Shown: in pieces, positions 15,642 through 63,803 of the stretch
How positions within the stretch are numbered: the stretch's first letter is position 1
Layout: the number at the start of each line of letters is the position of its first letter
Origin: Lytechinus pictus
Lineage: Eukaryota
NCBI RefSeq assembly: GCF_037042905.1
Contig: NC_087245.1
Span: 2,916,001 to 2,980,000 of the forward strand
Reading direction: 5' to 3'
Length of the DNA stretch: 64,000 bases
Notes under the pieces: model-generated
Databases searched by the model: none
Seen by the model: the letters and a program-made list of their open reading frames with translations, nothing else
What the model was told of the DNA's origin: nothing
Translations under genes and position numbers: made by a program

Positions 15642-15876
15642 GAGGATCTAGAGAGCCATGCTCCCCTTTTTGCTGACCATGAATCAATCAGTGAACTATT
15701 AGAAGGTTCCTCGCTAGGAGGTTCGTCTGCTTTTGGTGGATCAGGCGGGATGCAAGCGGAGCAACGAGATGTGCCAAGGCCCAGGACCCGGTTCATGTCC
15801 CTAGATGTTACAGGCTCTACCCCAAGTAATCTTCTTAAACGATCTCATAGCAATCCAAAGAGATCCAAACCCAAAG
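15642..15876 (+). CDS. SLC4 anion exchanger exon (EDLESHAPL...KRSKPK)
   Basis: Pyrimidine-rich acceptor TTTATAG|, donor AAG|GTAAGA, open frame, phase 0 to 1, GC higher than flanks. Confidence 0.7.
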
Positions 15877-21980: not shown

Positions 21981-22539
21981 TAGCACTTTTAGAAACGTAC
22001 GTCCACATAGACGACTGGTACGAGATGACATCATTTTTTGGCCTGCCATATGCCTCAGGTCCTCACACATGTCCACTATCAGAATAGAGAACCTCGCCAC
22101 GTCCATTTTGCGGTTCTCCTAAATCATAGTCGACGTGCACGTGAGTGATGTCATTTTAACCGTTCAAGCTCAGCATGAAGATCAGTCTTTCCCTTTTAAA
22201 ACACAGTTTTCAGTGACTTTTCACAAAATTAATATAAGTTGTACGATGCATTATGTTTATCATATTTGAAATTGCTTTCTTATCTCCAAAATATATATCC
22301 TAACTCGCGTAAAAAGGAATCAGCAAGTGAGAGGGCAAGTGTGCACAAGTTGCACCTTCGCATCACCCGACTCATGACCCGCTGGTTATCGCGCTGTTTC
22401 ATGTGGACGTACATACGCGTACAAGTCGAGTGAAATCTAAAGCATTCGCATCTGTGTGAACAAGGGCAGACGACGACGTTGACTCTAACAATCAGATGAC
22501 TGCTACGCCGTTCTCGTTCACTGGTCCTAAAACTCTCTA
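21981..22539 (+). mobile_element. Non-autonomous DNA transposon, copy 1 (copy 2 at 60862)
   Basis: Colinear similarity with 60862-61464; right end CTAAAACTCTC-TA; CpG-rich. Confidence 0.8.
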
Positions 22540-22634
22540 TTAGCAATGTAAGCCTGCTATCATCAGCCTATATGCTGCTAATTTTGATTGGGGGGGGGGG
22601 GGTAAGTGGGAGGGGGGAACTAACCTGGGGGCTA

Positions 22635-24776: not shown

Positions 24777-26844
24777 CAGGACATGCAACAAGTATATAAT
24801 GCAGAGACGGATATTTATGAGAAAAGATGTGTAAATTGTAGTTTTATGCACAGCCAAAAGGCTCTAAATGCTATCTTAAAACCCCAGAGATGCATGTAAA
24901 ATTAATGAACACACAGAATCTAAGCACCTTTGGTTTTTTATTTCAGTCTCAATGACATGGCTGCGATTTCTATTCGTTTTTTTTGCTTTGAATTAGATTA
25001 TCTTCCTAGTACATTCACTCATAAGAACCCCAATAAAATCAAATATTTCTTTTGTAGAATAATAAAAATATTTAAAAAAATTATTAAATTTTAGGTGCAC
25101 ATAAATAGGGCTCTCCTTTCTACCTACTATGTATATGCCAAACATTATCCTCTTCATTTTGGACTATAAATACCATGAATTATTAAACTTCTTCCAATCT
25201 CTCTCCATATTGCTTCTCATTATTTCACCCATCTCCCTCACTTAAATCAGCAATGGGCATCGTGGGTTTTTTGTGACAGTGAAAGTCAGTGCTCCATCCC
25301 TGTGCTGGAATATGATACCAAATATTACTTTTACAGAAAAAATATGACAGCATGATAATAATGCAAAATGAGAAAGGCTCCGATTACAAATTATAACAAC
25401 ACAGAATATTTTCTTAGGAAGATGGTCTGTATCAAACTGTTGCGGACAGAGCTTGGGTATTTCGCAGGAGAGTTTATAGCAAAAAAAGCTTTGCACAGAC
25501 TGCAGGGCTTTTCCCTATTCATTGCAAGAGTAGTGGAGTAGATCTTTCATAAATATGATATGGTTGTAAGAAATACCCAAATGTCAAGATACAATGAAAT
25601 TTTTCAATATTAGTGTGATATTTTGTATTGTTACTGTTAAAGAATGCAAGACTTTTTTTATAATTTTGAGAGAAAGTATTAAAACAGCTCAGAAAGTAAC
25701 ATAGGACAAAAGGTAAAATATTTATTTCTGTTGTGACACAAAGTTGTTATATTGTTAAGTTAATGTTATTTCATTGCTTCCTCCATAATTTATACACTAT
25801 ACAATTTATGAAAAAATAGACCTATCTATTTTGATGTTAATTGGGAGAATTTTCCTTTTTCCTCAAGTCAAATTGATGCATCAAATATGAAATACTGCAA
25901 AGTGGACCGTGTATAAAATATGGATGAGAAAGCCTTGACAAACATACATTGAAAAGCCTTACATTGAAAAGCCTTAATAATAATAATAAACATAATAACG
26001 CAGTTCTTGTATAGCGCCTTGAAAGCCTTGAAATACAGATATTAATTACACAGATAGTGAAGTAGCAATATGTTATCCTGGACTTTATTTTATTTCCTGT
26101 CGAGATGTACAAGCAGTTTTAAGGGGGTTGATTTATTGTGTTTGGTGTGCATGATTTCAATAATGAGATGATTTCTATTATATTTGAATCAGTAGGGTAT
26201 TATGGAAACTAAAAGGGGTAAAAAGATAAACACTTTCCATTTTAATTTTAAGTGAATTTCATTCAGGATCTAAAATACAAAAATCTCTTGTAGCTAATGC
26301 TGTAATCATAATTGCAAACCGGAATTGCAAACTGGTCAAACAGGAATCACCTGAGATTCTTAAGCTAATTATTCATTAGTCGTTTTGATAATTATGACTA
26401 CAGTCATAGGCATCCATGTATGATTCTTACAAAATCAATTTCCAGGGTTGCACTGACAGCATAAAGTGTCCTGACAGCTCAGATGTGTCCTATGAGAATT
26501 ATGGTCTGGATGACATTATTCCATCTCAGTGCCCATCTTGCCACTAAGTTGCTCATTCACTTTAAAACCCTTTTTTTGCTTACAACTAAACTTTGGTAGA
26601 TATAAGTAATGCAGTGCTTGAAATAATGTTATAGGAGTAAAATCAAGTCTTGATTAATATGATTGTAAATTGTGTAAGAACTTTGAATTTTGTTTATGTT
26701 TTATGTATAAAAAAGTAGATTTGTTCTAGATTTGGCCGAGTTTCTTTGTTATGCTGTTGCATGGATTTTCCTTTATACTAACAAGTTTATGTGCCCTACG
26801 AGAATTATGGACTGGATGACATCATTCATTCTCTAAACTCTAAA

Positions 26845-27321
26845 GGTGGTTTCAGACTGCCTCGAAGTTTGTCAGTTCCAGGTATTTTCTGATCGGGAAA
26901 TTTGCCCTGATCTACCCAATTAGAAAATACCAGGTAATTTTGGCAGTGTGAAAGTAAATTATGCGTAATATCCCCGAAAGAAAATACCAACTAAATAGTA
27001 GGTAATTGTTGGAAATACAAGAACCTTTGCTGGGCTTTTCCAATGTCGCAGGTATTTTGGCAGTGTGAATTACGGGAACTTTCTTAGCTAAGCGTGGAGT
27101 TGGTTGTGTGCGCTGTGGGTGGCTGCTAAGCTAACGATTTCAAATCTCGCACCTTTGGTGCTTATTGAACCTTACTGCACATGCTCACAACTTCAAGAAC
27201 TGTCTTTAAGGGTATGTTTCTGGGCGGTGTGAATGCAGGAATAATTATCAAGTATTTTTTGCCTAAAAAAGTTTTTTTAATTTAACAGGGATTCTTGTGA
27301 TCAAGGCGGTTTGAAACCACC
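26845..27321. mobile_element. Non-autonomous PIF/Harbinger/ISL2EU-like element, short copy (inverted relative to 59377)
   Basis: TIR GGTGGTTTCAGACTGCCTCGA / TCAAGGCGGTTTGAAACCACC; both subtermini are shared with 59377-60181. Confidence 0.8.
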
Positions 27322-27710
27322 TAATTGCCCATCTTGCTTCTGAGATGATGTATCTCCTGATACGTTAATTGGTTCTGAACTCAGAGGCATCGTTTGGTTT
27401 TAATGACTCTTGTTTGTCTTGCTCTTCTCATCACCTTCATAATCTATGGATATTGGGCAGAGAGATGTCAAAGCCATGAATTATGATCCCCTTAAACACT
27501 TCATAGGGGACGATACTCATTTATTTGTATTCTCTAGAGTAGACAGCGGCTCTTCTTTAATTGGGTAGGGAATCATAGCATGCTTGATTGTTCGCTGGGT
27601 GTATTAGACGTGAAACTCTTCTTTCACTCAGCGTATTGAATCAGTTTGGTAATCAAGAGACTTGCATTCAATACAGTGCTTTCTATATCTTACAAATTAT
27701 ATATTCGAAA

Positions 27711-31695: not shown

Positions 31696-32306
31696 AAAAG
31701 TAAAATCGACCAGACAAATTATATATTCATCATCTTTCATTCTATTCTTTCTCCTTTCACACCCTTTCTTGTTTCAATTTGTATGAGTTAATACCGAAGA
31801 TTCTCTCTGATAAAATATGTCCCTTTTTCTTTTTTATTCTTTCCTGTCTGATTCTGATAAGTCCTCGCATGTTGTCTTCGAGGTTGTTTCCTAAATATTC
31901 TTTTTCAGTATGTCTTTCTCTTTCCTCTAACTCTTCTATGTGTGATTTCTTGTTTTATTTCATTGTGTCTTTTGTACCTACCCGTCCCTATTTCTCCTTG
32001 TGGCCATCCATCATCCTTTCGATCTCACGTTGCTGTCCCATTTAATATTTTTCTGATTCCCTTCTCACTACTCCTCTCTCTCTTCTGTCTCTTTCACAGA
32101 GTACATACCCAGGAATCCCACTAGAGAATTAGAGATGTTAAGCTGATTAGGAAAATGCATTGCTGTAATTTCGTGTCACAGATTGACTAGGATATGTGCA
32201 ATATCTGTCAAGGTTTGACACCAACGAATAATTGGCTTTTGGCTCTGACATCATCAGTAAGCCCCAGACATTTGGTCATTTTTACAAAATTCTATCTTTT
32301 CTACAG

Positions 32307-33006
32307 GTGTTAGTCCTTTGGCAAGGTTCTCATCTCCACCGGAACAATCTGCGTCATCAGAGCAGGTCTGGGTTCTTGATGAGGAAAGGCGAAAGGCTGC
32401 TGATCAACCCCTTACAAGCAGCACTGAGAACAACCTAAACTACCCTTCAAAGCCTACTCCCTCGAATGTGGCTCAGCACCTATTGAACCGAGGAAGCAGT
32501 GAACGAATAAAGGGAGACCGGAGTGCCATGATGTACCCTCAGAATATCTCCAGGGGTACAAGTAGACCTCTCCGGAGCTGTTCTGCAGAGAATCTACCTG
32601 CAATCCCAAACAGAGGAATTGGTTCTGAGGCCAAGCCAGGTATGGAAGCTCGTAGCAGCTCAATGAATGACATTATAAGGATGGATCCAGCACTCCAGAT
32701 TCCAGTGATTGGAGTCGAGGAACCTTCCGACCAAGAGGACCAAAAGATGTCATCTGACCGTGAAGATGACAAGATCCAATCCAAAGGGACCGAACAACAA
32801 AAATCTCCTGTCAGCTCTCCACCTCTACAGAGGTTCTTGAATCCGGAATTGGCAAAACGACTGTCACTTCCCAATGAAGGGAGTGGCAGTAGTCTATCTA
32901 CTAGAACTGGAAGTGACAGTGATCTTAGTTACACTGGTAGTATTACACCAGATATTAATGAATGCAGGAGAAATGTTGGAGAGAGAGGTCAATTACGTAA
33001 AAGCAG
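32307..33006 (+). CDS. SLC4 anion exchanger large Ser-rich N-terminal exon
   Basis: Acceptor TCTTTTCTACAG|, donor CAG|GTAAGA, 700 nt open, phase 1 to 2 matching both neighbours. Confidence 0.8.
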
Positions 33007-44459: not shown

Positions 44460-45011
44460 GAATCAGACAAGCACAATGCTGAAAATTTCATCAAAATCGG
44501 ATGTAAAATAAGAAAGTTATGACATTTCAAAGTTTCACTTATTTTTAACAAAATAGTTAAATGAACGAGCCAGTTACATCCAAATGAGAGAGTCGATGAT
44601 GTCATTCACTCACTATTTCTTTTGTTTTTTATTGTTTGAATTATACAATATTTCAATTTTTACGAATTTGATGATTAGGACTTCCTTGCCTGAAGCACAA
44701 AATGTTAAAATAATGGAATTCCACGTGTTCAGGGAGGAATGAAACTTCATTTCACATGACAATGACGAGAAAATCAAAATATTTCATATTTCATATAATA
44801 AAATACAAAAGAAATAGTGAGTGAGTGATGTCATCAGTTCCCTCATTTGCATACCGACCGAGATGTGCATATAACTGTTTTGTGAAATGAAGCGAAACTT
44901 TAGAATGTCATAACTTTCTTATTTTACATCCGATTTTGATGAAATTTTCAGTGTTATGCTTGTTTTTCTCTTTTTATTCAAATCAAGTTTTTGTTGGGGT
45001 GGACTTGTCCT
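44460..45011. mobile_element. Kolobok-like MITE, left end missing
   Basis: About 48-bp internal inverted repeat (44478-44526 vs 44904-44952); right end GGGGTGGACTTGTCCT-TTAA. Confidence 0.65.
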
Positions 45012-48990: not shown

Positions 48991-49022
48991 TTTTTAGGAT
49001 TTGCAATATATTTCTACTTTAA

Positions 49023-49608
49023 AGGAGAATGAAACTCTTGGAGCAAGTTAGCTTTTGTGAAAGCAGAAAAATCAAAGAATAAGATCAACAAAAGTTTGAG
49101 TAAAATAGGACTAGCAATAGAAGAGTTATGAGCATTTGAATGTCAAGATCACTAATGCTATGGAGATCCTCCCATTGGCAACGCAACCAAGATCTATGAT
49201 ATCACAGATGAACAACTCTCCCCTTTTGGACACTGAAAATATACCCCAAAACATCTCTTTTTGCTCATTCTAATCATATGACAAACGATTCATCAATGAT
49301 ATAATGTTGTGAAACCTCTGTACTTGTCCTCTCATAAAGATAGAACATCTCACCTTGTGACAGATTCTATAAAAGTGAGAATATAAGTGAAATAAGTACT
49401 AAAGCAATGAGGGAGTTGTACGTGTGTGACATCACAGATCTTGGTCGCATTGCCAATGGGAGGATCTACATGGCATTAGTGATCTCAATATTCAAATGCT
49501 CATAACTTTCTTATTATTCATTCAATCTTCCTCAAACTTTCAACAATGTGTTTCTTTGATTTTTCTCTTTGATATGGATTCAGCTGGTTTCAAGGGTTTC
49601 ATTCTCCT
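49023..49608. mobile_element. Kolobok-like MITE with long inverted arms
   Basis: TTAA-AGGAGAATGAAAC ... GTTTCATTCTCCT-TTAA; about 80-bp internal inverted repeat. Confidence 0.85.
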
Positions 49609-50877
49609 TTAAGAAAAAAAATGATGTAAAATGCTCATTAAATATATACTACTAATATGTTACTTAAAACAGCATGGTGTCCTTAAAATGGTAGATGGTG
49701 GGTCATGGTAAGTTCATGATCAACAAAAGTCAATGTATACACTTGATTTATAGGGACAAGAAATACCATCATTAAATAAAAACTTTAGTGAATTAAATCA
49801 TATGATTTTATTACCAGAATTGTATTGACCCAGAATGGTGCTGACCCAAATGCTATATTCACATTCAAATACTGTACTGTCTTGTTCCATATATTGTAAA
49901 ATGGTACTAAAACATTGTGTATGATATTATGGGCAATTTGGGCATAATGAATTTGCATTTCAGTAATTGCAAAATGATAATGTATTGCTAATCTGATCAT
50001 TATAGATAAATTATTCATTATAAATTCATTATCATCCTACTAACCCACACACTTACAAGGTCAAATGTAATCAGGTTGTAAAATATTAGCAAAGGGGCAA
50101 CTTATTGCTCTCTATAAATCTACTCATTGGTCATTTATTTTATTGTTCCCATAATAAACTGAAATTAAGAGAGACAACATATAATTTGAACTCTTTCTGT
50201 CCTCATATATTGTCATCATAAATTTCAAAGTCCAAAGTCATTTACGAACTCGACTAGGGAATTTTTTTATAAACCCCAATAAAGATTTCACATATTATAA
50301 AATAGTGTTGAATTGCTGCTGTTTGTTTGAAATTTGTTTGTTTTCAAGATATGAAGCTCACGTAAGCACTTGTCTTTCCCAAACAGCCACATGAAGTGGC
50401 AAATTGTACATTGTTCTAGTAGAACTTTAATGGACATGAGATAATGTTTTCAACCCGTATTCAACATTTTATCTACTATATATAACAAGGAAGAAAGTGT
50501 GAAATCTTTGTGTTTAAAAAAGATTAGGCATCATGCATTTACTTCAGTCGCAAAAGAACAAATACTGTAAAGAAACATAAGTTATTTTTACTTTTTCAAT
50601 GTCAATGAACACTGAAGATACATCAACTAATCCTGGTCATCTATTTGTATGATGTCGTACTCTGTAAGGTTATCTTCGTTATCGACTGAAACCAGAGGAT
50701 GTTGGATCTATTATTTTACCTTATTCGAGGCCACTTGATGTGATGGGATTTTGGTGAATAATACAATTTAAGATTCTAGACTTATTCCAGAGACTTCTTC
50801 AGAATGTCAAGTGTTCTGATAGACTATTTCACCCCGGGACCTCTCCTCCCATCTCTTCTTTCTCTTCAACTTGACAG

Positions 50878-51086
50878 TTTACGGAAGAAATCAAGACCCC
50901 ATGACCCCACCCGCCATGTCCAGCTGGCTCTGGATAGTGTGAAGGAGGAGGGAACTCCCCCAACGCCAAGGAAATACAAGAAGCGAGATGATGGGCGGCC
51001 AAGGGTCCAGATACGGATCGGGGATGATGAATCTGATGAGGAAGGAGACAAGGTGGACTGTGGAAGCGATGACCCGAACGAGAATG
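50878..51086 (+). CDS. SLC4 anion exchanger exon (LRKKSRPHD...DDPNEN)
   Basis: Long pyrimidine tract plus GACAG|, donor ATG|GTGAGT, phase 2 to 1; RVQIRIGDDESDEE resembles the SLC4 N-terminal RVQF..G-acidic motif. Confidence 0.8.
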
Positions 51087-53071
51087 GTGAGTACAACACA
51101 ATATTTGAAATAAAATGTGAGGTATCTGATGTTTTTGTAGAATTATTTCTTTGAGGAACAGGCATAAACTTCTTTTTTAACGAAGAAAAATTGGTTATTT
51201 GATAGGTACTAAATACAAAATATATAACAGTAAAGCAATTAAAATGTTTATGGGATAATGGGAGTTAGTCCTGCTGAGATATTGTCTTTGTATAATGTGG
51301 TAATGTTATTACTTCATTCATTTGGTGGTGGCAATACACCCCCTACCCATGTTAATTCGTCAAGAAATAATCTTTTGGCTATAGGAGGTTTGCCTATTTT
51401 CTTTTGCCTCTGAATGAATGCAGATACACAATGCACATCTGAATATGTGGGAAGCTTTGTTATGGTATTTTCCTTGAGCCAAGTGAACATGCAATGCCAT
51501 TCAAAACCAGTGAAGTGAAACCCCAGAATGAAACCATTCCTAAATCTACAGTGAAGTTTAGTCTGTAAATCAGTACACAGTTCTCAATTGAATAAAAGGT
51601 CTCCAAGGAGCTTATCACCTCTGTATATACTGTATAGGATACTTACAATATTGTGATGCAGTAAAGCATATCAGTGGAGGTTTTTATCTCTTTGTGTTTG
51701 AGGGGATTTTGCAAAACTATGTAGTCACCTCTTTAATGGAACTTTTATCTGAGAGTTTCAATCAGTGGATATTTTTAGGTTTTGCAGAACTGGTGTTGAA
51801 AGTCCACCAGTTCTTCATTGAATTTGCTAATCAGCATTTGTTTGCACTTTAAATGGTTTGATGAACAAGTTGCTGGTACTCATGTGTTCTGTGAATGTTT
51901 TAGCCTGCGGAAGTAACTTGCTGTGTTGTTTGTGTACAATGTTTGATGGTTGGTTGTACAAATGAAGGACAAATCATGATTTTGTAATGTGACCAAATGC
52001 AGTGTTTGTAGTTAGCTTGCACTGGGATTTAACTGTGGACCAGAATCAGTGTACATCTAGATTTGAGTTCTGATCAAATTCTCATTGGAACTGATGTTTT
52101 CATCACAAGGAAGAAGCAAATACATCCTATATTAGCTCAATTAGATTTTCTTTTCTAATTGTCTATAGTATAGAAGGGATTTTCCAGTGATATTTGTTCC
52201 ATTTCATCAGTTTTTAGTGGGATCCATCCAGGACTGATACAGAGAATATAATGGAACTACTCCACAGCCAATACCCGTAGCTGGATTTAATTTAGAATGC
52301 AAGGGGTATGAATTAGGTATAATCCCAATAACCTTGAACTGGTATCTTCAGGTATGAATTGAATATGCCAAAGAATTGATTCAGTAGTTTCCATGGGCTA
52401 TGAGTTTGGATATATCTGCATATAGCTGCTTGAAGGATGCAAAGCTAAAAGTGGTGGTGAAAGAGATGATCAGAAACTGCTTGGAGCATTGAATAAATTA
52501 CGCCTGACTCCTGAGTGTTAATACTCCTTTGACATCACAACAATAGTGTATCCTTGATGGACTACTACATGTAAATCCTCTGAATATGCATCAGTATGTA
52601 TAACGTCTGAATTAAAATGAGCAAAGAGAAAAATAAAAGGAAACTTCCAGAGAAAGAAGACAGATATGGTTCCCAGTATCAGGAAGGGAATGATCTGAAG
52701 CAACGTAAGTGATATCGATTTCAGGCTAGGTTCTATATGATCGTCAAGGAGATAACATTGATGATTGTTTGTAATCATATGGAGTCTTATGGAATTTGCA
52801 TCAGGCTTTAATACACTACTCAAAAAAAGTTAAGGACCACTTTTTAAAACGTACATAAAGATTTTATACAAGGTGTTTTATTTCTGGAAATACCTCAGTA
52901 CAACTGTCCTAAATGTCCTTAAACACGCTGTAATCAATTTCACGCATGGGTGGTTTCAGTTGTTGCACAATGTCTCTCGCATCACTGCACATCCTGAAAA
53001 GTGGGCCCCGAGGGGTATCAGCTACCGACATGAAGTGGTAAAAACGAATGTCTGAGTGTCTTTCAGGCAGT

Positions 53072-54100
53072 TCAGTAACGAGTGTGACCACCTCCTGCAG
53101 CAATAACGGCTTCACAGCGCTGTCTCATGGAGCTGATGAGGCGATTGATGTCTCTGACGTCCAGTGCATCCCATGCAGCCTCCACAGCCACACCCAGCTG
53201 CTGCAGTCCAAGTGGATGGGCTTCGAGCTGCTCGAGACTCCTCCCCATCATGTCCCAGACGTGCTCTATCGGGTTTAAGTCCGGGGACCTCGCTGGCCAC
53301 TCCATACGCTCAATCCCCTGGCCCTCAAGGAACTCGGTCACCACCCTAGCTCGGTGGGCACGGGCATTGTCATCCATGAAAATGATGTTTTGTCCCACAT
53401 TTTCTGCAAATGGCACCACTATAGGTTCAAGGACCTCATCCCTGTACCTCACTCCTGTCATTGCTCCCCCTGGGACCACGTAGAGACGAGTACGGTTGGC
53501 GTAGGTGATGCCTCCCCACACCATGACGCTGCCTCCCCCATAACGGTCATGTTCTGCAATACAGGGGTCTGCAAATCTCTCTCCTGGTCGCCTCCAGACT
53601 CTCGAACATCCATCATTGTGGTCAAGGGAAAATCTGCTCTCATCTGTGAACAGAACTCTACGCCATTGCTGTCTGGTCCATCTGACATGCTCCCGGGCCC
53701 AGTTGAGACGAATTCTTCTGTGAGCAGGGGTGAGTGGGACACACTGAGCTGGCCGTCTGGCATGCATATTGGCTCTGTGAAGTCGGTTACGGATTGTTTG
53801 AGTGGAAACAATCACTCCAGTTGCTGCAGCGAAGTCATTGTTGAGGCGGCGTGCACTGTGAAAGCGGTTGCGGAGGCTGAGATTCGTCAAGTAGCGATCA
53901 TCTCTAGGGGTTGTCGAAACTGGTCGGCCACTGCGGGGTCTCTCGGAGTATAGCCCTGTCTCTCGGTGTCTTTGATTTGCTCTGCTAATGACACTGTGTG
54001 ACACGCCCATCATTCTGGCTACTCTTCGCTGACTGAGGCCAGCTTCCAGCATCCCTAGGGCTCTGGCTACATCTGTTTCACTTAGGTGGTGTCTTGGCAT
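53072..54100 (-). CDS. Tc1-like DD34E transposase, left copy (342 aa)
   Basis: Paired-like HTH, RSGRP, FTDESRF, MDDNA-x34-E (SPDLNPIE); uninterrupted. Confidence 0.95.
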   Translation of the reverse strand: MPRHHLSETDVARALGMLEAGLSQRRVARMMGVSHSVISRANQRHRETGLYSERPRSGRPVSTTPRDDRYLTNLSLRNRFHSARRLNNDFAAATGVIVSTQTIRNRLHRANMHARRPAQCVPLTPAHRRIRLNWAREHVRWTRQQWRRVLFTDESRFSLDHNDGCSRVWRRPGERFADPCIAEHDRYGGGSVMVWGGITYANRTRLYVVPGGAMTGVRYRDEVLEPIVVPFAENVGQNIIFMDDNARAHRARVVTEFLEGQGIERMEWPARSPDLNPIEHVWDMMGRSLEQLEAHPLGLQQLGVAVEAAWDALDVRDINRLISSMRQRCEAVIAAGGGHTRY

Positions 54101-54440
54101 TGCTGTTGTAGGCAAGTTGTTGATTGTACAGACTAAAGACGGAAAATGCTTTGGAAGACACTTGTCTTATGGCCCACTGCAATGATGCCAGAGACATCAT
54201 GAAAGAACTGCATGTGTGAAATTGATGTCATTGTGTTTGATGGCATTCTGGACAGCTGTATCTTGGCATTGCTATTGTCAGCAAGTTGTTGATTGTAGAG
54301 ACTAAAGACAGAAAATGCTTTGGAAGCCACTTTTGTACGGGCACATTGCAATGATGCAAGAGACATGAAAGAACTGCATGTGTGAAATTGATTTCATTGT
54401 GTTTGATGGCATCCTGGACAGCTGGATAGCAATGCCAAGA
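54092..54440 (+). repeat. Diverged direct tandem repeat (2 x about 170 bp) forming the spacer of the palindrome
   Basis: 54092-54260 vs 54261-54427, both starting TCTTGGCATTGCT. Confidence 0.85.
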
Positions 54441-55460
54441 CACCACCTAAGTGAAACAGATGTAGCCAGAGCCCTAGGGATGCTGGAAGCTGGCCTCAGT
54501 CAGCGAAGAGTAGCCAGAATGATGGGCGTGTCACACAGTGTCATTAGCAGAGCAAATCAAAGACACCGAGAGACAGGGCTATACTCCGAGAGACCCCGCA
54601 GTGGCCGACCAGTTTCGACAACCCCTAGAGATGATCGCTACTTGACGAATCTCAGCCTCCGCAACCGCTTTCACAGTGCACGCCGCCTCAACAATGACTT
54701 CGCTGCAGCAACTGGAGTGATTGTTTCCACTCAAACAATCCGTAACCGACTTCACAGAGCCAATATGCATGCCAGACGGCCAGCTCAGTGTGTCCCACTC
54801 ACCCCTGCTCACAGAAGAATTCGTCTCAACTGGGCCCGGGAGCATGTCAGATGGACCAGACAGCAATGGCGTAGAGTTCTGTTCACAGATGAGAGCAGAT
54901 TTTCCCTTGACCACAATGATGGACGTTCGAGAGTCTGGAGGCGACCAGGAGAGAGATTTGCAGACCCCTGTATTGCAGAACATGACCGTTATGGGGGAGG
55001 CAGCGTCATGGTGTGGGGAGGCATCACCTACGCCAACCGTACTCGTCTCTACGTGGTCCCAGGGGGAGCAATGACAGGAGTGAGGTACAGGGATGAGGTC
55101 CTTGAACCTATAGTGGTGCCATTTGCAGAAAATGTGGGACAAAACATCATTTTCATGGATGACAATGCCCGTGCCCACCGAGCTAGGGTGGTGACCGAGT
55201 TCCTTGAGGGCCAGGGGATTGAGCGTATGGAGTGGCCAGCGAGGTCCCCGGACTTAAACCCGATAGAGCACGTCTGGGACATGATGGGGAGGAGTCTCGA
55301 GCAGCTCGAAGCCCATCCACTTGGACTGCAGCAGCTGGGTGTGGCTCTGGAGGCTGCATGGGATGCACTGGACGTCAGAGACATCAATCGCCTCATCAGC
55401 TCCATGAGACAGCGCTGTGAAGCCGTTATTGCTGCAGGAGGTGGTCACACTCGTTACTGA
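54432..55460 (+). CDS. Tc1-like DD34E transposase, right copy (342 aa)
   Basis: Same motifs; differs from the left copy at two residues (R/C, L/V). Confidence 0.95.
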   Translation: MPRHHLSETDVARALGMLEAGLSQRRVARMMGVSHSVISRANQRHRETGLYSERPRSGRPVSTTPRDDRYLTNLSLRNRFHSARRLNNDFAAATGVIVSTQTIRNRLHRANMHARRPAQCVPLTPAHRRIRLNWAREHVRWTRQQWRRVLFTDESRFSLDHNDGRSRVWRRPGERFADPCIAEHDRYGGGSVMVWGGITYANRTRLYVVPGGAMTGVRYRDEVLEPIVVPFAENVGQNIIFMDDNARAHRARVVTEFLEGQGIERMEWPARSPDLNPIEHVWDMMGRSLEQLEAHPLGLQQLGVALEAAWDALDVRDINRLISSMRQRCEAVIAAGGGHTRY

Positions 55461-55721
55461 ACTGCCTGAAAGACACTCAGACATTCGTTTTTACCACTTC
55501 ATGTCGGTAGCTGATACCCCTCGGGGCCCACTTTTCAGGATGTGCAGTGATGCGAGAGACATTGTGCAACAACTGAAACCACCCATGCGTGAAATTGATT
55601 ACAGCGTGTTTAAGGACATTTAGGACAGTTGTACTGAGGTATTTCCAGAAATAAAACACCTTGTATAAAATCTTTATGTACGTTTTAAAAAGTGGTCCTT
55701 AACTTTTTTTGAGTAGTGTAT

Positions 55722-57315
55722 ATTACCTCAATAATCTCAGATGTATCTGTCTACCTGTGCCATTTATCTTTCATGAATGTCCTGGAAGAAAGTACACCAA
55801 TTTTAGCGCAATAGCGCCATCTCTTGGTGAACTTATGAGTTATGACCTTGCAACTGGGCGTTGTGGCGTGCGCCTGTAATCCAATCTATGTGGGGAAGTT
55901 ACAAATTGATGCAGAGGTTCAAGCCCTGGTCACCTCTTTCGGATGGTGACGTTAAAGGTCGGTCCCAGACGTAAATAATCATATCTGATTGATACACGTC
56001 TGACAAAACTCAAATACACACACACACACTTCTGTTTGTATCAATCCCAAGCAAGCATGCGCACCAATTGTAACTTTTCTTTCTTCACCCTCGGAGCGTC
56101 AACACGTCTTTCGTCTGTGCTCCGAAAGCTAAGTGAAGTTGTATACTTTCCAAATTGTGTTTTGCGTTTTGGATATTTAGTTATGCTTCAAATTTTCCAG
56201 ACTTTATCTTACTGTAGTTTAATTTATGACTGGTTTATAGTTTATACTTCTGTCCGCAGAGTGTGGCGTTAGCTTACATTTACATGTATAGCTAATTCTC
56301 TGTTGAGCTTGTGTTAGTTATACGTTGTCAATGTGAGGCTCTCCTTCATGCTTGCTGCTGCTGCATAGCTGTCGCTCTCTCTCTTTCGCGCTCCGTTGTT
56401 TAGCGTGATAGGGTTTTTAGAGACGACTTCTCCGTCTCCTTTTTTGTTTTCACAGTTCAGGCTGTTTGAATTTTTTCTGAATTCTTTCTTCATCTTCGGA
56501 GGTCTCTTTATTCTTATAAATTGTGCCTCTTATTTTCTTAGAATATTTTAAGATAGATTCTTGATAGCATCGCATTACATGCTTCTGTTTTGACAAGACA
56601 TAGTATGTTCGCAAATCGGAACAACTCTTGTATTCTCGCACGAATCCTGCCTTTACCGCTTCTTCGTTTTGCAAGATCCAAGCGGCGGGTGCCGGCACGT
56701 GGCTATATTGATGCGAGGTCGGAGGCTCTTGATACTAAGAAGTATCCACTTGTCTTGAGCACTCTCCTTCAAGGTGTTCTCGACAACTTCAGACGCTCCT
56801 GGTGCTTTGCGTTTTCCTTACATCTTCTTTTAAGGTAAATTCCTCGGCTGAGGAGAGCTTGCGCCCTCAGCTTTGAAAGCAGCGGCCTCTGCATCTACAT
56901 CTCCCTTGAACTTAGTTACTTCCTTTTTTTTTGACATACCTACCAAGGTTATCCTTGCCAGTCTAGCAAAGTAGATGGAACCATCAAGATTATTGAAGTA
57001 AATCATGAAAGTACTTGCCTGATTTTCTTATGTATGAGATAATTGGATGTATCTTTCTACTATCCTGCCCTCTGTCCCCTCACCTTGCGTGGCCACTTGT
57101 CACTTTTGCGAGTGCTCAGAGGAGGTTTAACATGTATGCTAATATGATATATGAATGTGAGCAGAAGTAGAAGTGGTCATGTGTTCACTGGGAGATGGTA
57201 CGATTGCATAATAATCTGAGTACGTACATATATTCGAGGGTAGTCCATGAAACATGAACTAACAGGAGTAGAAGGATACATAAATAAGAAAATCAGGTAA
57301 GTATTGTCATGATTT
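55722..57315 (+). mobile_element. Decayed non-autonomous DIRS1-like (tyrosine-recombinase) retroelement
   Basis: Left end about 55722-56035 is a degenerate inverted repeat of about 57160-57280; right extension ends GGTAAGTATTGTCATGATTT; internal region 56971-57037 is complementary to the joined right and left ends (ICR). No intact ORF. Confidence 0.7.
55853..56028 (+). mobile_element. SINE-like insertion with 7SL (SRP RNA Alu-domain) head and (CA)n tail
   Basis: ACTGGGCGTTGTGGCGTGCGCCTGTAATCCAATCTATGTGGGGAAGTT resembles the 7SL 5' end; B box GGTTCAAGCCC; TTTCGGATGGTGACGTTAAAGGTCGGTCCC central motif; interrupts the DIRS left repeat. Confidence 0.7.
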
Positions 57316-59376
57316 CAGAGAGCATAGATATTAACCATGCAACAGTCACTTCAAGAGAAAGAGCTTATGAAATAAAAAGGAAATGGATTCTGTCTAACTT
57401 AGCTTTAACTTCCTTTTATCAGGCTTTATTGAGGAAGTAGGTAAATTATACAGAAATCAATTTTTAAAAATTGCATATTGGAAATGGACTTCATTAGTAT
57501 GCTTTGCACACAGACACGGGCACAACGTGAGATTTATATTGTTCATGAAGCATCATGCTAGCATAGAGCTAATAGCTCCATGATGTACACAAGAAAAATC
57601 CTTTCATCTTTACAAGAAGAGAGCCCAGAATAATGTACATGTCCACAGGAAGAACATGTTTTTGTCTTTTCGGCAATGAGGGAATCGGAAGGTAGAGTAT
57701 ACTACAGAACATTCAAAGTGCATGTGATTATAAATTAATGGGTCTAGACAACATTTCATTCTTGGTACTGGTGAACAAAATGTGAATTACATGACTATCA
57801 TATTCAACTAGAGGTTTTCTTTGGGCCTGCTGTACCTTATTTTGTTCGTACTTGTCCCCTTTATAGGTGTCATTTTTATATTTATGTATTTTACTTTGGG
57901 ATCGAATATTATGTTTCATTTAGGTAGGAAGTGTCTTGTAACTCTGGATATCAAAGGTTACCTTACCAATGTTCACCCATGGTCTGCTACTATAATATGA
58001 AGGAACTAATTCAAAATATTGCCATGAATCTGGATTCTGGAGGGGGGGGGGCAAAGTTTGATGTAGTTGTGTGTTCATGTTCCATTCTCTATTCAATAGA
58101 GTTGTTTCAGTACAATTTCTTTTAATGCTGTATTTACAAGTAGATTCTATCAGACTCAGATTATATCAAACTCAAAGTAAAGTTTCAAATACAGTATTGT
58201 ACTTCGGTGTTGTGTAAAAGAATGAATCAGAAAATCTATTATTGTTTCATGGTAAAGAGTATATTAGTCATTTTGAAGGGAGAAGGAAATGATGAAAAAG
58301 CATATCTATTGTGTGGGAGACGGTGTTTGTTATTTCATGGGCAGTTAGTTGTTTTTTATGCTATGCATGTTTGAAATCAGACTCAAATCGAAACCCCACC
58401 AGGACCGGTTTCCTGTGCGTCTCCTTGCTGAGAGGAAATCGTTATGCAACTTTGACAATAAAGCGAGTTTACAAATGATGGTCATTTTGACTTCTGTGGA
58501 AGGACAATAAACAGGCTAGTTCATTATTAGATGTTTTATTTCACCATTGGTTATCCAAAGAGCAATACATGATTTTAGGTATAAGATGGGTGTTTGACTG
58601 GAAGGAGACAAACAATTGTTAACAGTATAGATTATTCTCTCTTGGAACACTCTATAGGACGAGGATGAGACGACGCTTGCGCTCGGCCGAAGAAGGTATA
58701 TTCTTGAAAAGATATTAACCTGTTGTGCACAGGAAGGGGTATTTCCCAGATTAAGCCTTAAGGATCAAGTGAACGACAAGTGTAGTCAGATCAAGTCGTT
58801 GGAAACCAAGTTCAACTGGCATGATCTGCAAGTGATACAACATGTCTTTGCTTTCTTTACTTGATGTGTTGTGTTGAATGCACATGTTGAATGCATTATT
58901 TATATCCAGACAAATTTGCCCTATTTTCAGTGGAAGCTTTTTGTAAAGAGGAAAAATGAACAAAAACTACAATGTTTGATTTTGATCTGCACCAGTGGCT
59001 CTTTTGTGTTGCGGGTGTTAACATGAGAAGTTAAATTATGAGGGGTGACTGCACTATTTCTGGTTGGAAGATTCTCAACACAAACAAATGTTTTTTTATG
59101 AATATGTAAAGGGAAAAAAAAATCTTGGATACCACACCATGGTTATGTAGGGTTACATGTAACTACCCTTACTAATCGGAAGCAGCTGTATTTGTTGTCC
59201 AAAAACAATAATTTGCACCCTTATATTAAATGACTTGTTCAACTGCATTGTAAAAAAATCTGTTTATAATCTGTGTTATTGAATTTTAAAAAGTCTGATA
59301 GATTCTTATTTTCTTATGTTTATTAAACAAGGACTATGATCAAACAGATCTTTATTTCATTGATATGATGGCACTA

Positions 59377-60181
59377 GGTGGTTTCAAACTGCCTCGATCA
59401 CAAGAATCCCCGTTAAATTATGAGAACTTTTTCATGCTAAAAAATACCAGATATTTATTTCCGCATTCAGACCGCCCCGAAACACACTCTTCGGGGAAAT
59501 TTCTCGAAGTTATGAGCATGTGCAGTACTGTCTGGTAGCAGACGAAGTAGCGCGCGCTTTTCAACAGCGGTACGTATCGCGATCGTGGGACGGCCGGCCG
59601 GGGCAGGAGATCCGCCTGCGGCCGGCCTAGCTCTAGCATGTACTAACTATACTTGATCGTATGCGCAAATCATTTGCTCCCATGATCATCATCTGCAATT
59701 GCACTAGATTTCTCTCCACATTGAATTAAGGCCTTGGTGGCCTCCTCACTCCAGTGCGATGTCATCTGGTATGAAAATGTAGAATACCGGTAAATATCAC
59801 CCTTAATTCATAAGAATCAACCGCCGAGTCAGTCGAACCTCGAATCACGTCGCATAAAAAGTGTACGTATGTTTATCGCTGCATGCACTGGCGCTGGCTT
59901 GCTCGCTCGGTAGACCTCGCATATCCATGCATATCGAACAGCGCGTGCTATGCACCGGAAATTCACTTATCACGGTGATAGATAGGATACAAGTTCTTGT
60001 ACTTTGCTTTCAGATTGCCAAAATACCCACGACCTTGGAAAAATCCCCGCGAAAGTTCTCGTAATTTCGCCAAGTACCTACTATTTAGCGGGTATTTTCT
60101 TTTGGGAAAATTACTCGTAGTTTGCTTTCACATTACCAAAATACCTGGAACTGACGAACTTCGAGGTGTTCTGAAACCACC
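59377..60181. mobile_element. Non-autonomous PIF/Harbinger/ISL2EU-like element, longer copy
   Basis: TA-GGTGGTTTCAAACTGCCTCGA ... TCGAGGTGTTCTGAAACCACC-TA; contains a Myb/SANT-like remnant. Confidence 0.8.
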
Positions 60182-60861
60182 TACTCAGACTCTGGTCCAG
60201 ATTTAACTAATTAGAACTTGAGCAATTGAAATGTTTAACACAGACTCAGCAATCCATCTTCAAGCCAAATCCAATCTCTTTTGATTATGAGTGCTACCAT
60301 GAATGAATACAATCAGAATCTGGTCATTTCTCAAATCATTTTTGCACGAACCTCTGCTTCTTCGCCCTAGCAGAGTGAAGACGTCTCCAAGAAAGTGTGC
60401 TTTTGAAAGAGCTATAATAAGTACACTTCCAAAATACAATTTTAGGCTGTATTGTGTTGCTTCTTTGCAACCAGATTCAATGCCAACCCTTTTTACTTCA
60501 GTATTGTATGGTTTGGCTCGTTTTGAATTCCCGGAGACTGACTTTTTAAGCGATTTTCTGAATTCTTCCTTTTTATCCCAGTGTTCTAAATATTTTTGTA
60601 CATGTGCTTGTGCGAGGTCTTCCTCCCATGGCTTCCCTGCGCTCTCTCTTGCGTGATACTGTAGGTCTTTGTTTGATGCCCGGTCTTTATTATTCTCATC
60701 CTTTGTTACGCGAATAGTTCTCCTTGCTTCACAGCAGGAGTTTCGGGCATCGCCCCATATCTTAGGTTTGAAACGTGAATTCCTTCCTTTTCTTTCTTTT
60801 CAGTTTGCAGCCGGACTTGTTTTTATTCAGGTGTTATCCCTCCCTGCTCTATAGAAATTAC

Positions 60862-61464
60862 TGAGCAGTTTTAGAAACACGTCCACATAGACGACTGGTA
60901 TGAGATGACATCATTTTTTGGCCTGCCATATGCGTCAGGTACTCACCCTAGTCCACTACCAGAATTGAGAACCTCGCCACATCTATTCTGCGGTTCTCCT
61001 AAATCATAGTCGACGTGAGTGACGTCATTTTAATTGCTCAAGCTCAGCATGAAGATCAACCTTTCCCTATCAAAACACAGTTTTCAGTGTTCACAAAATT
61101 AATGTCAGTTGTACGATGCATTATGTTTATCATATTTGATATTGCTTTCTGATCTCCTCGATATATATCCTAACTCACGTAAAAAGTAATCAAAGCAAGT
61201 AAAAGGGCAAGTGTGCATAATTTGCACCTTCGCATCACCCGACCGGGTCGTCAAGCGATGGTTCGCCAGATCTTCCGGGTCGATCGGGCAGCGTGTCATG
61301 ACTCACTTGTTATCAAGCTTTTTCACGTGGACGTACGTACACGTACAAGTCAAGTGAAATCTAAAATATTAGCATCTGTAGTGATCAAGGGCAGACGACG
61401 ACATTGACTTGAACGATCAGACGACTGCGACGCCGTTCTCATTCACTGCTCCTAAAACTTTCTA
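60862..61464 (+). mobile_element. Non-autonomous DNA transposon, copy 2 of the 21981 family
   Basis: Colinear with 21981-22539, with about 50 extra internal bases near 61244-61295. Confidence 0.8.
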
Positions 61465-62294
61465 TTTATTCCTCATGAATGAAGTCCGAGAGTCTTCACG
61501 GCAATGAGCACCTACCCCAACATGATGGGTGGGAGCTAGAGTGGGTACCCGCTTCCCTGACAGAGAAAAGGAATATAAGCCCCGGCCAATCGGGCGATTC
61601 TGCCTCCTCTTGCTTGGAGACTCAGACACTAATGAATTTGATAACGCTCCCAAGGTCCAATCTGGACTAACACCCATAGTGAAAAGCACTTTCGGGGGAG
61701 CGATCGCCTCTCTCAAGAGGAGATTGAGGGTCCAAAACAGGCAAATGAGATTATGAACAATCCTCAAAGCCTCCCACCCACAGGTTTTTCCATTTGGAAA
61801 CCGTCTCCCCTGAGCCACCTCTTGGCTGCCGCCCAGCAGCCTTGCGCTACTGCAATACTATAGACCAGGAACGTTTGTGGCCCAAGAAGAAGCGAAAAAT
61901 GTTACGACGTGAACCCAGTGTTTACTGACAGTCATACATTTGAGGTACTGACAGAGCAATATCACAACTTTAATTTAAGGTGCTCTGTGCTCTCAAGCTC
62001 TGTGGTGTTTTACCACCAGCTCCATGCCTTCCTTATCCCTTGATTCTCTGTGGATAGAAAAATTAGAAGGCGAATCGTCGGCATCTTATACGGCTGGTGC
62101 AGAATTAAATTTCTACTACACATGGGTAACCAAATTATTTCCAAACAACCCCCTAAACGAGTTTTTCTCTGTGTGCAAAATAACCCCCTAAACAAGTTTC
62201 ACAGGCTTTATTTACACATTTTGGCCCCGAAACAAGTTGTCGCCAGAATATGACCCCGGGGAAAAGCTTGGGGGAAAACAACCCGTCCTCTCAT

Positions 62295-62618
62295 CACATG
62301 GTCTAATGCCATTCCATAAACAGCCATGTGGTCCAATAATCACTTTGTCTTATTACCAGTTCTCTGACCATTTTGTCTTAACACCAGTTGGTCTACCACC
62401 CATTTTCTTTTCATTCATTTTGCCCAATTAACACTTAGTCCAATTAGACCAAATGGTATATGGACTAATTGCTATTGGACCAAGTGGTTATTAGACAAAA
62501 TGGTGAGTGGACGAAATGGCATTTAGACCATGAGGATAGTGGATGAACTGATTGTAGACCAAACGATAGTAGATGAGTTGGTAATTGGACGAATTGGCAT
62601 TAGACCAATCTGAAATAA
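62295..62618. repeat. Foldback-type array of degenerate approximately 15-bp repeats inverted about 62440
   Basis: Left units resemble TTACCA(G/T)TTGGTCTA; right units resemble TAGACCAAATGGTAA. Confidence 0.65.
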
Positions 62619-62801
62619 ATGGGTTTACTGGTCAATTCGAAAAGATTTAAGAGAGTTTGTGTATTGTATTATTTAACTAGTATTAAGTCCATGTAATTGT
62701 TGCCTTTCGGAGGGCTGACATTGAAATAAGCCAGATTTATGTAGATGATATACTAAGTTTACTATACTTGTAATAATTTCACTGTTTGTTTTAACTTTTA
62801 G

Positions 62802-62887
62802 GCTACAGTGGAAGGAGGAAAGGGAATGTTAATGTTACTCAAGAGAAATTCCCCATCAATACCAAGAGAGCACATGAACCTCATGAG
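62802..62887 (+). CDS. SLC4 anion exchanger exon (YSGRRKG...AHEPHE)
   Basis: TTTTAG| acceptor, GAG|GTAAGA donor, phase 1 to 0; PHE joins LFVQLD, like PHEVFVELNEL of AE2/AE3. Confidence 0.85.
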
Positions 62888-63604: not shown

Positions 63605-63803
63605 CTCTTTGTACAGCTTGACTCATGGCAGTACAACCAGAATCAGTCTGAAGAAGGGTTTGTGGAGAAGATATGGAAGGAGACTGCAAGATGGATCAAG
63701 TTTGAGGAAGATTGGGAGGCTGGATCAGAGAGATGGGGTAAACCTCATGTAGCCTCACTTACATTCAATAGCTTGCCACAGCTAAGGAAGGGGCTTGAAA
63801 ATG
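63605..63803 (+). CDS. SLC4A2-like: SLC4 anion exchanger (AE2/AE3-like), first exon of the band-3 cytoplasmic domain
   Basis: WKETARWIKFEED...RWGKPHVASLTF..L..LR; GKPHVASL is the AE-type form rather than the NBC-type SKPHVATL. Acceptor TTTGTAG|, donor ATG|GTAGGT. Confidence 0.93.

Follow-up and report, generated by a model that had tools for sequence, protein, structure and literature searches.

In maize, natural inverted duplications of transposon sequence can act as killers of their own family. Mu killer holds both terminal inverted repeats (TIRs) from one end together with two partial mudrA copies and is read from a flanking gene (PMC3440606), and the Ac killers, which are intronic, yield double-stranded RNA (dsRNA), 21-24-nt small interfering RNAs (siRNAs), and heritable trans-silencing (10.1101/2020.01.07.897926). 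For Tc1 of C. elegans, a review describes fold-back of the TIRs in read-through RNA as the mechanism (PMC3878927). Exchanged or enlarged ends are known as well: a template switch from the left to the right TIR has been proposed for Goblin (PMC3814204), Rpmar49 and Rpmar17 of Rhodnius have a 5' part swapped for a 3' part (PMC4678618), mariner-derived MITEs (miniature inverted-repeat transposable elements) of Drosophila show replacement in the reverse sense (PMC4161770), and Galileo TIRs also lengthen by absorbing internal sequence (PMC4168063). Here, we describe a 2,905-bp palindrome (52814-55718) that lies, with TA on both sides, in an intron of an SLC4 anion-exchanger gene of the sea urchin Lytechinus pictus. 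It was found in a 64,000-nt stretch of contig NC_087245.1 (the window, whose numbering is used throughout), and we judge it fairly probable that an active DD34E Tc1 family left it behind as a single, very young by-product of repair.

The palindrome itself is confirmed in this assembly. A repeat finder places its arms at 52811-54104 and 54428-55721, 1,294 nt each when the TA and one chance base are counted; inside the element, each arm measures 1,291 nt and the spacer 323 nt. Base-by-base comparison reveals exactly two mismatches between the arms (53185/55347 and 53608/54924), and each arm contains one complete transposase open reading frame (ORF) of 342 codons, the two ORFs being divergent and reading outward from the centre (Table 1). 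The nearly perfect arms of ~1.29 kb covering the whole ORF, as reported in the initial annotation, are thus borne out. Folding of the central 933 nt recovers the expected stem at -760.5 kcal/mol, with z = -69 against 20 shuffles, which excludes a chance fold.

The transposase matches the Pfam families DDE_3, HTH_Tnp_Tc3_2, and HTH_38. Its catalytic triad, located from motif positions as D153-D244-E279, has a gap of 34 residues separating the E from the second D (DD34E). The DDE transposase with N-terminal helix-turn-helix domains, the TIRs, and the TA target duplication together identify a DD34E/Tc1 element. None of six other ORFs, including a 224-amino-acid antisense frame of the transposase, matches Pfam, and a search inside the TIR for direct repeats of the inverted repeat/direct repeat (IR/DR) type found none. 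Both differences between the arms are changes of the left arm only, namely R165C (at a CpG) and L306V, where the right arm has the letters of all four mapped sequencing runs. The spacer consists of two diverged direct copies that are 88% identical. On its plus strand, the element offers three pyrimidine-rich AG sites and one AATAAA, the latter at 55650, near the far end of the right arm, and the only one on the host-sense strand.

The form of the ordinary element emerged from mapping 4 (X1, X9, X11, and X21) of 23 public runs, none of which is recorded as a small-RNA library. The mapping left out 16 of the 20 runs that contain part of the stretch, among them the marine and echinoderm metagenomes and organism D, as well as the raw runs X22 and X23. 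The mapping target comprised the left flank, left arm, and spacer (50500-54427) at an identity of at least 86%, and reads of the right arm thus fall on the left arm. A strand-switching joint between 53008 and 54338 is present in 12 reads of X21 and reaches a depth of 194.1 in X11 (organism C), compared with 192.6 for the ORF contig, while X1 has a matching loose end. This joint is the normal 5' end of ordinary copies, which therefore possess a TIR of 195 nt. Further joints step back by 166 nt (54413 to 54248, in X21, X9, and X11) or by 333 nt (54424 to 54092, in X21), from which it follows that both spacer units belong to a tandem array of ordinary copies. The array unit of 166-169 nt comprises the first codons, the 5' untranslated region (UTR), and a degenerate (~72%) copy of the inner TIR. 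Accordingly, the ordinary element is built as TIR(195)-tandem array-ORF-TIR(195) and measures about 1.7-2.2 kb, depending on array length. That length is variable in the family's 5' region, and the depth of X11 suggests around four units there.

The family occupies multiple insertion sites, as mixed loose ends before 52811 appear in X21 (16 reads, agreement 0.53), X1 (three contigs), and X11 (two contigs). In five X21 reads, only the outermost 34 nt of the TIR (to 52847) are present before unrelated sequence sets in, and an X11 contig lacks 52848-52934; both are probably non-autonomous relatives with a common outer TIR. The palindrome was also considered as the family's normal form, which was rejected since X11 has the ordinary 5' junction at ORF depth and neither X9 nor X11 has any record past 54427. 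An origin of the spacer duplication together with the palindrome was likewise rejected, given its divergence of 12% and its tandem repetition in three organisms. Outside the runs, metagenome contigs gave 14 loci at 28-44% identity and prokaryote genomes nine weak matches at 30-45%, none of them in this Tc1 family, and none of six viral contig candidates was confirmed.

Compared with an ordinary copy, the palindrome reads as a minus-strand element as far as unit 2 extends; beyond that point, the remaining array and the 5' TIR have given way to an inverted copy of the ORF, 3' UTR, and 3' TIR. The switch point falls on a 13-nt stretch that the unit start and the ORF start have in common, in inverted sense. 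A 5' end swapped for an inverted 3' part, intact outer ends, and microhomology at the breakpoint are the features of a long-TIR (3'-3') derivative. A MITE would be short, non-autonomous, and amplified, whereas this element is 2.9 kb long with two intact ORFs, and its junction is listed in none of the four runs, thus giving no sign of amplification.

We infer that the element arose during gap repair, when synthesis entering from the 5' TIR would have jumped to the 3' TIR, which is identical. Copying would then have run backwards through the 3' UTR and the complete ORF to the start codon, after which the array would have been rejoined at the short shared stretch. The product of such a reaction would be a 3'-3' palindrome with 1.29-kb "TIRs," each enclosing a full transposase gene. 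As the perfect ends and the TA have been kept, the palindrome should be mobilizable. A Mos1 derivative with two right ends shows better transposition in vitro (PMC4505599), although that is a case of unequal ends, and a difference between the TIRs is not in evidence here.

The same junction could also be explained by two ordinary copies in opposite orientation, inserted adjacent or nested, whose 5' ends were both removed by a later deletion or by TIR-TIR recombination. The junction indeed coincides with the TA of the array in ordinary copies, the family is so homogeneous that the identity of the arms fits two separate copies, and for Rpmar49 it has been suggested that sequence was deleted between two neighbouring copies (PMC4678618). 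Such an origin is nevertheless quite unlikely in our view, as it needs two or three events instead of one template switch, and the element has a single outer TA pair with no remnant of either 5' TIR; the 13-nt inverted microhomology fits repair synthesis. Less credible still is an assembly artefact, in which reads of an ordinary element would have been joined into a fold-back chimera. The fold-back junction (54427 to 54104) is indeed absent from the joints listed in all four mapped runs, and the structure is therefore known from this assembly only; contigs, however, demonstrate presence, not absence. Moreover, the two arm differences both sit in one arm, and one of these is a CpG transition; the other arm has the sequence found across species, and unique host sequence continues in the correct orientation past a clean TA.

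Returning to repair synthesis within a single element, the comparison of divergences bears on its date. The arms differ by 0.15% (2/1,291), the window and four mostly non-coding X1 contig pieces by 2.3% (25/1,078), which is a ~15-fold contrast; judged from these sequences, the insertion is probably young and polymorphic. As for the spread of the family, 18 public contigs carry a protein identical to the right-arm transposase, and its 90% protein cluster has 17 members, including a protein of the sea spider Nymphon striatum (90.5% identity). In organism B, a 1,498-nt contig departs from the left arm plus unit 1 by two letters, both at the private sites of the left arm; over these 1,498 nt, no listed position separates the element of organism B from the right arm. 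Organism C has one listed difference from the right arm, which is fixed, at 54141. X9 and X11, the runs of organisms B and C, cover the element only (13/30 bins) and no host exon. The presence of a near-identical element in other organisms, seen against a host allele difference of ~2.3%, points to a very recent horizontal invasion and suggests that the element spread among marine animals by very recent horizontal transfer. Contamination from organism A is an unlikely source of the X11 signal, given that G54141A accounts for 207/207 of the depth in X11, 0/50 in X21, and 0/157.5 in X1; for X9, such contamination is possible.

Both isoforms of the host gene are expressed. Exon 63605-63803 matches sea-urchin SLC4 anion exchangers, best those of Lytechinus pictus (100%) and S. 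purpuratus (98%), and the exons at 50878-51086 and 62802-62887 are consecutive in S. purpuratus AE2 according to tblastn. The splice from 51086 to 62802 is seen in eight RNA reads of X21 and one contig of X1, so that the intron in which the initial annotation had placed the palindrome is real. What that annotation overlooked is an alternative first coding exon (52617-52704), of which 29/30 amino acids equal the N-terminus of L. pictus protein isoform X1 (tblastn) and which is joined to 62802 by 18 reads in the stranded RNA run X21. Its donor at 52705 lies 109 nt upstream of the element. As both donors (51086 and 52704) join 62802, the element is intronic in both isoforms. X21 depth over the alternative first exon starts in the bin 51810-51940; the whole exon (51810-52704, plus strand) has a 5' UTR of several hundred nt and encodes MSKEK.... 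Junction reads in X21 are more numerous for this exon (18) than for the upstream exon (8).

The RNA of the family was assessed in one stranded run, X21, of which ~6% was used, with the strand convention taken from the host exons (first mate on the minus strand means plus-strand RNA). Since a single arm was mapped, read-through of both arms of the palindrome should give a strand depth of ~1:1. Instead, arm depth was 47.8x antisense to the transposase and 3.9x sense, a ratio of 12:1 that rises to 29:1 over the 5' half of the ORF. At 53185 (a C/G site, where editing could not mask it), the left-arm letter occurs in 0/46 antisense reads (95% upper bound 6%), at 53608 in 0/71, and depth in the bin spanning the insertion point is ~3x. 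Family RNA, at 40-66x (52858-54427), is deeper than the host exons, at 15-19x.

The initial annotation had asked for clustered A-to-G mismatches in nuclear RNA-seq; A>G changes consistent with ADAR editing are present in the RNA of this family. A>G makes up 50 of 99 listed places in X21 compared with 9 of 59 in X1. Among the rows listed, the RNA-only sites are 52903 (14/17), 52911 (17/19), 52937 (21/24), and 52970 (30/36); all four lie in the 195-nt TIR, occur in antisense reads only, and are absent from the X1, X9, and X11 contigs. If such sites were spread over 374 A's, the chance of all four falling in the TIR would be ~7e-4. Three other listed A>G rows were set aside as variants: 51046, which falls in a host exon, 52969, which X1 and X11 have too, and 53608. 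In total, 450 of 673 mapped X21 reads are at least 99% identical while only ~71 read-equivalents lie on the flanks, which means that most ORF reads are unedited. Taken together, the 12:1 strands, the absent left-arm alleles, the A>G changes in the TIR, and the reads across the ordinary junction indicate that the bulk of X21 family RNA stems from ordinary copies at other sites that are read through, with the TIRs of these copies pairing and being edited. In the sea urchin, young repeats are reported as the main targets of ADAR, with 86% of sites in repeats (PMC9989829).

If the intron is transcribed in a carrier, the stem would most likely be hyper-edited by ADAR and degraded with the excised intron, and the hairpin would add little to the antisense, TIR-edited RNA that ordinary copies already make. 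The initial annotation had proposed a possible Mu-killer-like locus whose host pre-mRNA would carry fold-back dsRNA and which could couple silencing or hyper-editing to SLC4 expression, or alter host splicing. Such a precursor is predicted from the anatomy, and the architecture holds up: a natural inverted duplication of transposon sequence sits inside an expressed host unit with a host first exon just upstream. The RNA is less accommodating, with no fold-back joint listed in the four runs and X21 RNA unlike that of a hairpin. In its full form, this reading has the SLC4 promoters, above all that of the alternative first exon, read both arms, upon which the 1.29-kb stem would be diced and the family silenced in trans. 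Both host isoforms are expressed, the stem spans the whole ORF and is 99.85% perfect, and maize Ac killers also sit in host introns, one being read from the promoter of the flanking gene (10.1101/2020.01.07.897926). Since the host-sense AATAAA lies near the outer end of the right arm, transcription from the short-isoform promoter might in principle produce a polyadenylated hairpin of ~3.8 kb. We nonetheless hold trans-silencing to be decidedly unlikely: in X21, the strand ratio is 12:1 instead of 1:1, no allele specific to the left arm is seen, most reads of the ORF carry no editing, and no fold-back joint is listed, even though the host isoforms are expressed. Antisense RNA of the family is already abundant and comes from other copies, which makes the palindrome locus unnecessary. 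For invertebrate deuterostomes, moreover, it has yet to be established that long dsRNA silences through siRNAs: a study of amphioxus detected no classical siRNA population (PMC6396948), and no sea-urchin study is among the 20 of 498 literature matches listed. The killer idea is unsupported, yet not refuted. Another reading, which is compatible with a repair by-product, locates the main effect in the host: the hairpin, so close to the short-isoform donor, would impair splicing or cause early polyadenylation, making this a mildly deleterious SLC4 allele. The proximity to 52705, the three pyrimidine-rich AG sites together with the AATAAA, and Ac killer hairpin transcripts that seem to retain introns (10.1101/2020.01.07.897926) agree with it. 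We consider it unlikely, however, as no joint from 52704 or 51086 into the element is listed and both donors splice to 62802 in X21.

Several points weigh against our preferred account of a young repair by-product with a hairpin that would add little to family RNA. The data accommodate the template-switch route and a deletion between two adjacent copies alike. RNA was read from a single run, and the rows listed for the X21 animal include neither a carrier nor an empty site. Reads below 86% identity as well as diced RNA escape the mapping and could hide a contribution of the hairpin. ADAR-type editing is strongly indicated, if not proven, as the source of the A>G changes in the TIR, and the rows listed give a position for only 7 of the 50 A>G sites in X21. 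Five X21 reads extend past the end of the mapped stretch, on the 54427 side (X21 has no depth at the left end), and some of them could be fold-back reads. Sense depth is raised to 5.8-8.4x at 52989-53381, which shorter palindromic copies could explain. The X21 test therefore speaks to the origin of the bulk of family RNA in that sample and is not proof of a silent hairpin in a carrier.

Table 1. Features of the palindromic element and of the surrounding SLC4 exons (positions in the window)
Feature	Position	Strand	Basis
Whole palindromic (3'-3', "right-right") Tc1 derivative, 2,905 bp	52814..55718	.	Repeat finder and arm comparison
TA target-site duplication, left	52812..52813	.	Flank sequence
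TA target-site duplication, right	55719..55720	.	Flank sequence
195-nt TIR, 3' end of left unit; holds family-RNA A>G sites 52903, 52911, 52937, 52970	52814..53008	-	Run joint 53008-54338
Left transposase ORF, 342 amino acids, intact; carries both private changes; ~330 nt of upstream array kept, without 5' TIR	53072..54100	-	
Tandem unit 1: first codons, 5' UTR, degenerate (~72%) inner-TIR copy	54089..54261	-	
Tandem unit 2, 88% identical to unit 1; tandemly repeated in ordinary copies of organisms A, B, and C	54258..54427	-	Run joints
Fold-back junction; ordinary copies have TA and the start of the next unit here; 13-nt inverted shared stretch	54425..54440	.	
Right transposase ORF, 342 amino acids, D153-D244-E279 (presumed triad); only 4 nt of its own 5' UTR left	54432..55460	+	
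195-nt TIR, 3' end of right unit; holds AATAAA at 55650	55524..55718	+	
SLC4 anion-exchanger exon, long isoform, spliced to 62802	50878..51086	+	tblastn and X21/X1
Alternative first exon, coding part, donor 52705	52617..52704	+	tblastn (29/30 amino acids) and 18 spliced reads
Next SLC4 exon, common acceptor of both isoforms	62802..62887	+	tblastn and RNA
SLC4 exon, start of Band 3 cytoplasmic domain	63605..63803	+	

Elsewhere in the window, upstream SLC4 exons of a long N-terminal isoform lie at 15642-15863 and 32306-32980 (plus strand), and the Diadema protein P0126 aligns with them. Older, imperfect inverted-repeat elements (44461-44965 and 48996-49635, with arms 71-87% complementary) sit in one of this gene's upstream introns, and the host pre-mRNA therefore already contains other fold-backs. 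Two dispersed repeat families are present as well: 21999-22541 and 60879-61466 are direct copies ~39 kb apart (85-92%), and 26844-27323 and 59375-60182 are inverted copies 32-33 kb apart (80-91%); ORFs near these two families have no Pfam match. A cluster of ~55-nt units at 361-717, alternating between direct and inverted orientation (85-98%), resembles a small foldback element.

With long "TIRs" that have come to enclose the whole transposase gene, the palindrome takes a known Tc1/mariner repair rearrangement to its extreme. It also provides a clean experiment of nature on whether a kilobase-sized hairpin within an intron is able to initiate the silencing of transposons in an invertebrate deuterostome. 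The killer reading is testable in carrier and non-carrier siblings, the urchin being genetically tractable, and if true, it would extend the maize mechanism to animals. In its most far-reaching version, to which we give little credence, the locus would be a natural animal "killer" allele met in the midst of a horizontal invasion. Transcription of the mobile palindrome would start at the alternative SLC4 promoter and stop at the element's own poly(A) signal, and the 1.29-kb whole-ORF hairpin would seed small-RNA silencing of a Tc1 family that still hardly differs between several marine organisms. Possible transposase source and off-switch of the element would then be combined in one unit. The side results may matter more than the palindrome, namely the signs of a very recent horizontal invasion and urchin family RNA that is already mostly antisense and appears hyper-edited in its TIRs.

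How does this locus relate to the known systems? Among the matches listed from the open-access literature searched, neither a palindromic Tc1 with two ORFs nor a case of an animal Tc1 killer was found. With Mu killer (PMC3440606) and the Ac killers (10.1101/2020.01.07.897926) of maize, it has in common an inverted transposon duplication, both TIRs from one end, and a position in which a host gene can read it. These killers duplicate the 5' end and partial ORFs, whereas the palindrome duplicates the 3' end and whole ORFs. Furthermore, they are defined genetically, in a plant, by dominant heritable trans-silencing with siRNAs, while the palindrome is known from its structure. As for the natural RNA interference against C. 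elegans Tc1 (Sijen and Plasterk 2003, as described in the review PMC3878927), read-through RNA of ordinary copies with paired TIRs fits the antisense, TIR-edited RNA of the urchin; in the urchin, however, the TIRs measure 195 nt and the visible mark is A>G editing.

Among transposons, the Bari2 and Bari3 elements of the long inverted repeat (LIR) type, with TIRs of ~250 nt (PMC4877112), share with it the DD34E transposase, the TA target, and a TIR length near 200 nt, but in the urchin family no internal direct repeats were found in the TIR, and the 5' region is a variable tandem array with degenerate inner-TIR copies. Rpmar49 and Rpmar17 (PMC4678618), Goblin derived from Ozma in Aedes (PMC3814204), and the Dromar7/11/28/36 MITEs (PMC4161770) resemble the palindrome in the inverted replacement of one end, the very long TIRs, the microhomology at the junction, and the intact outer ends. 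Those long-TIR derivatives are short and non-coding (213 bp to ~1.7 kb), whereas in the palindrome the copy reaches the start codon, making it longer than its parent and giving it two complete ORFs. In short, the type of rearrangement is already known; copying as far as the start codon, with two whole transposase genes as the outcome, sets this element apart from those derivatives.

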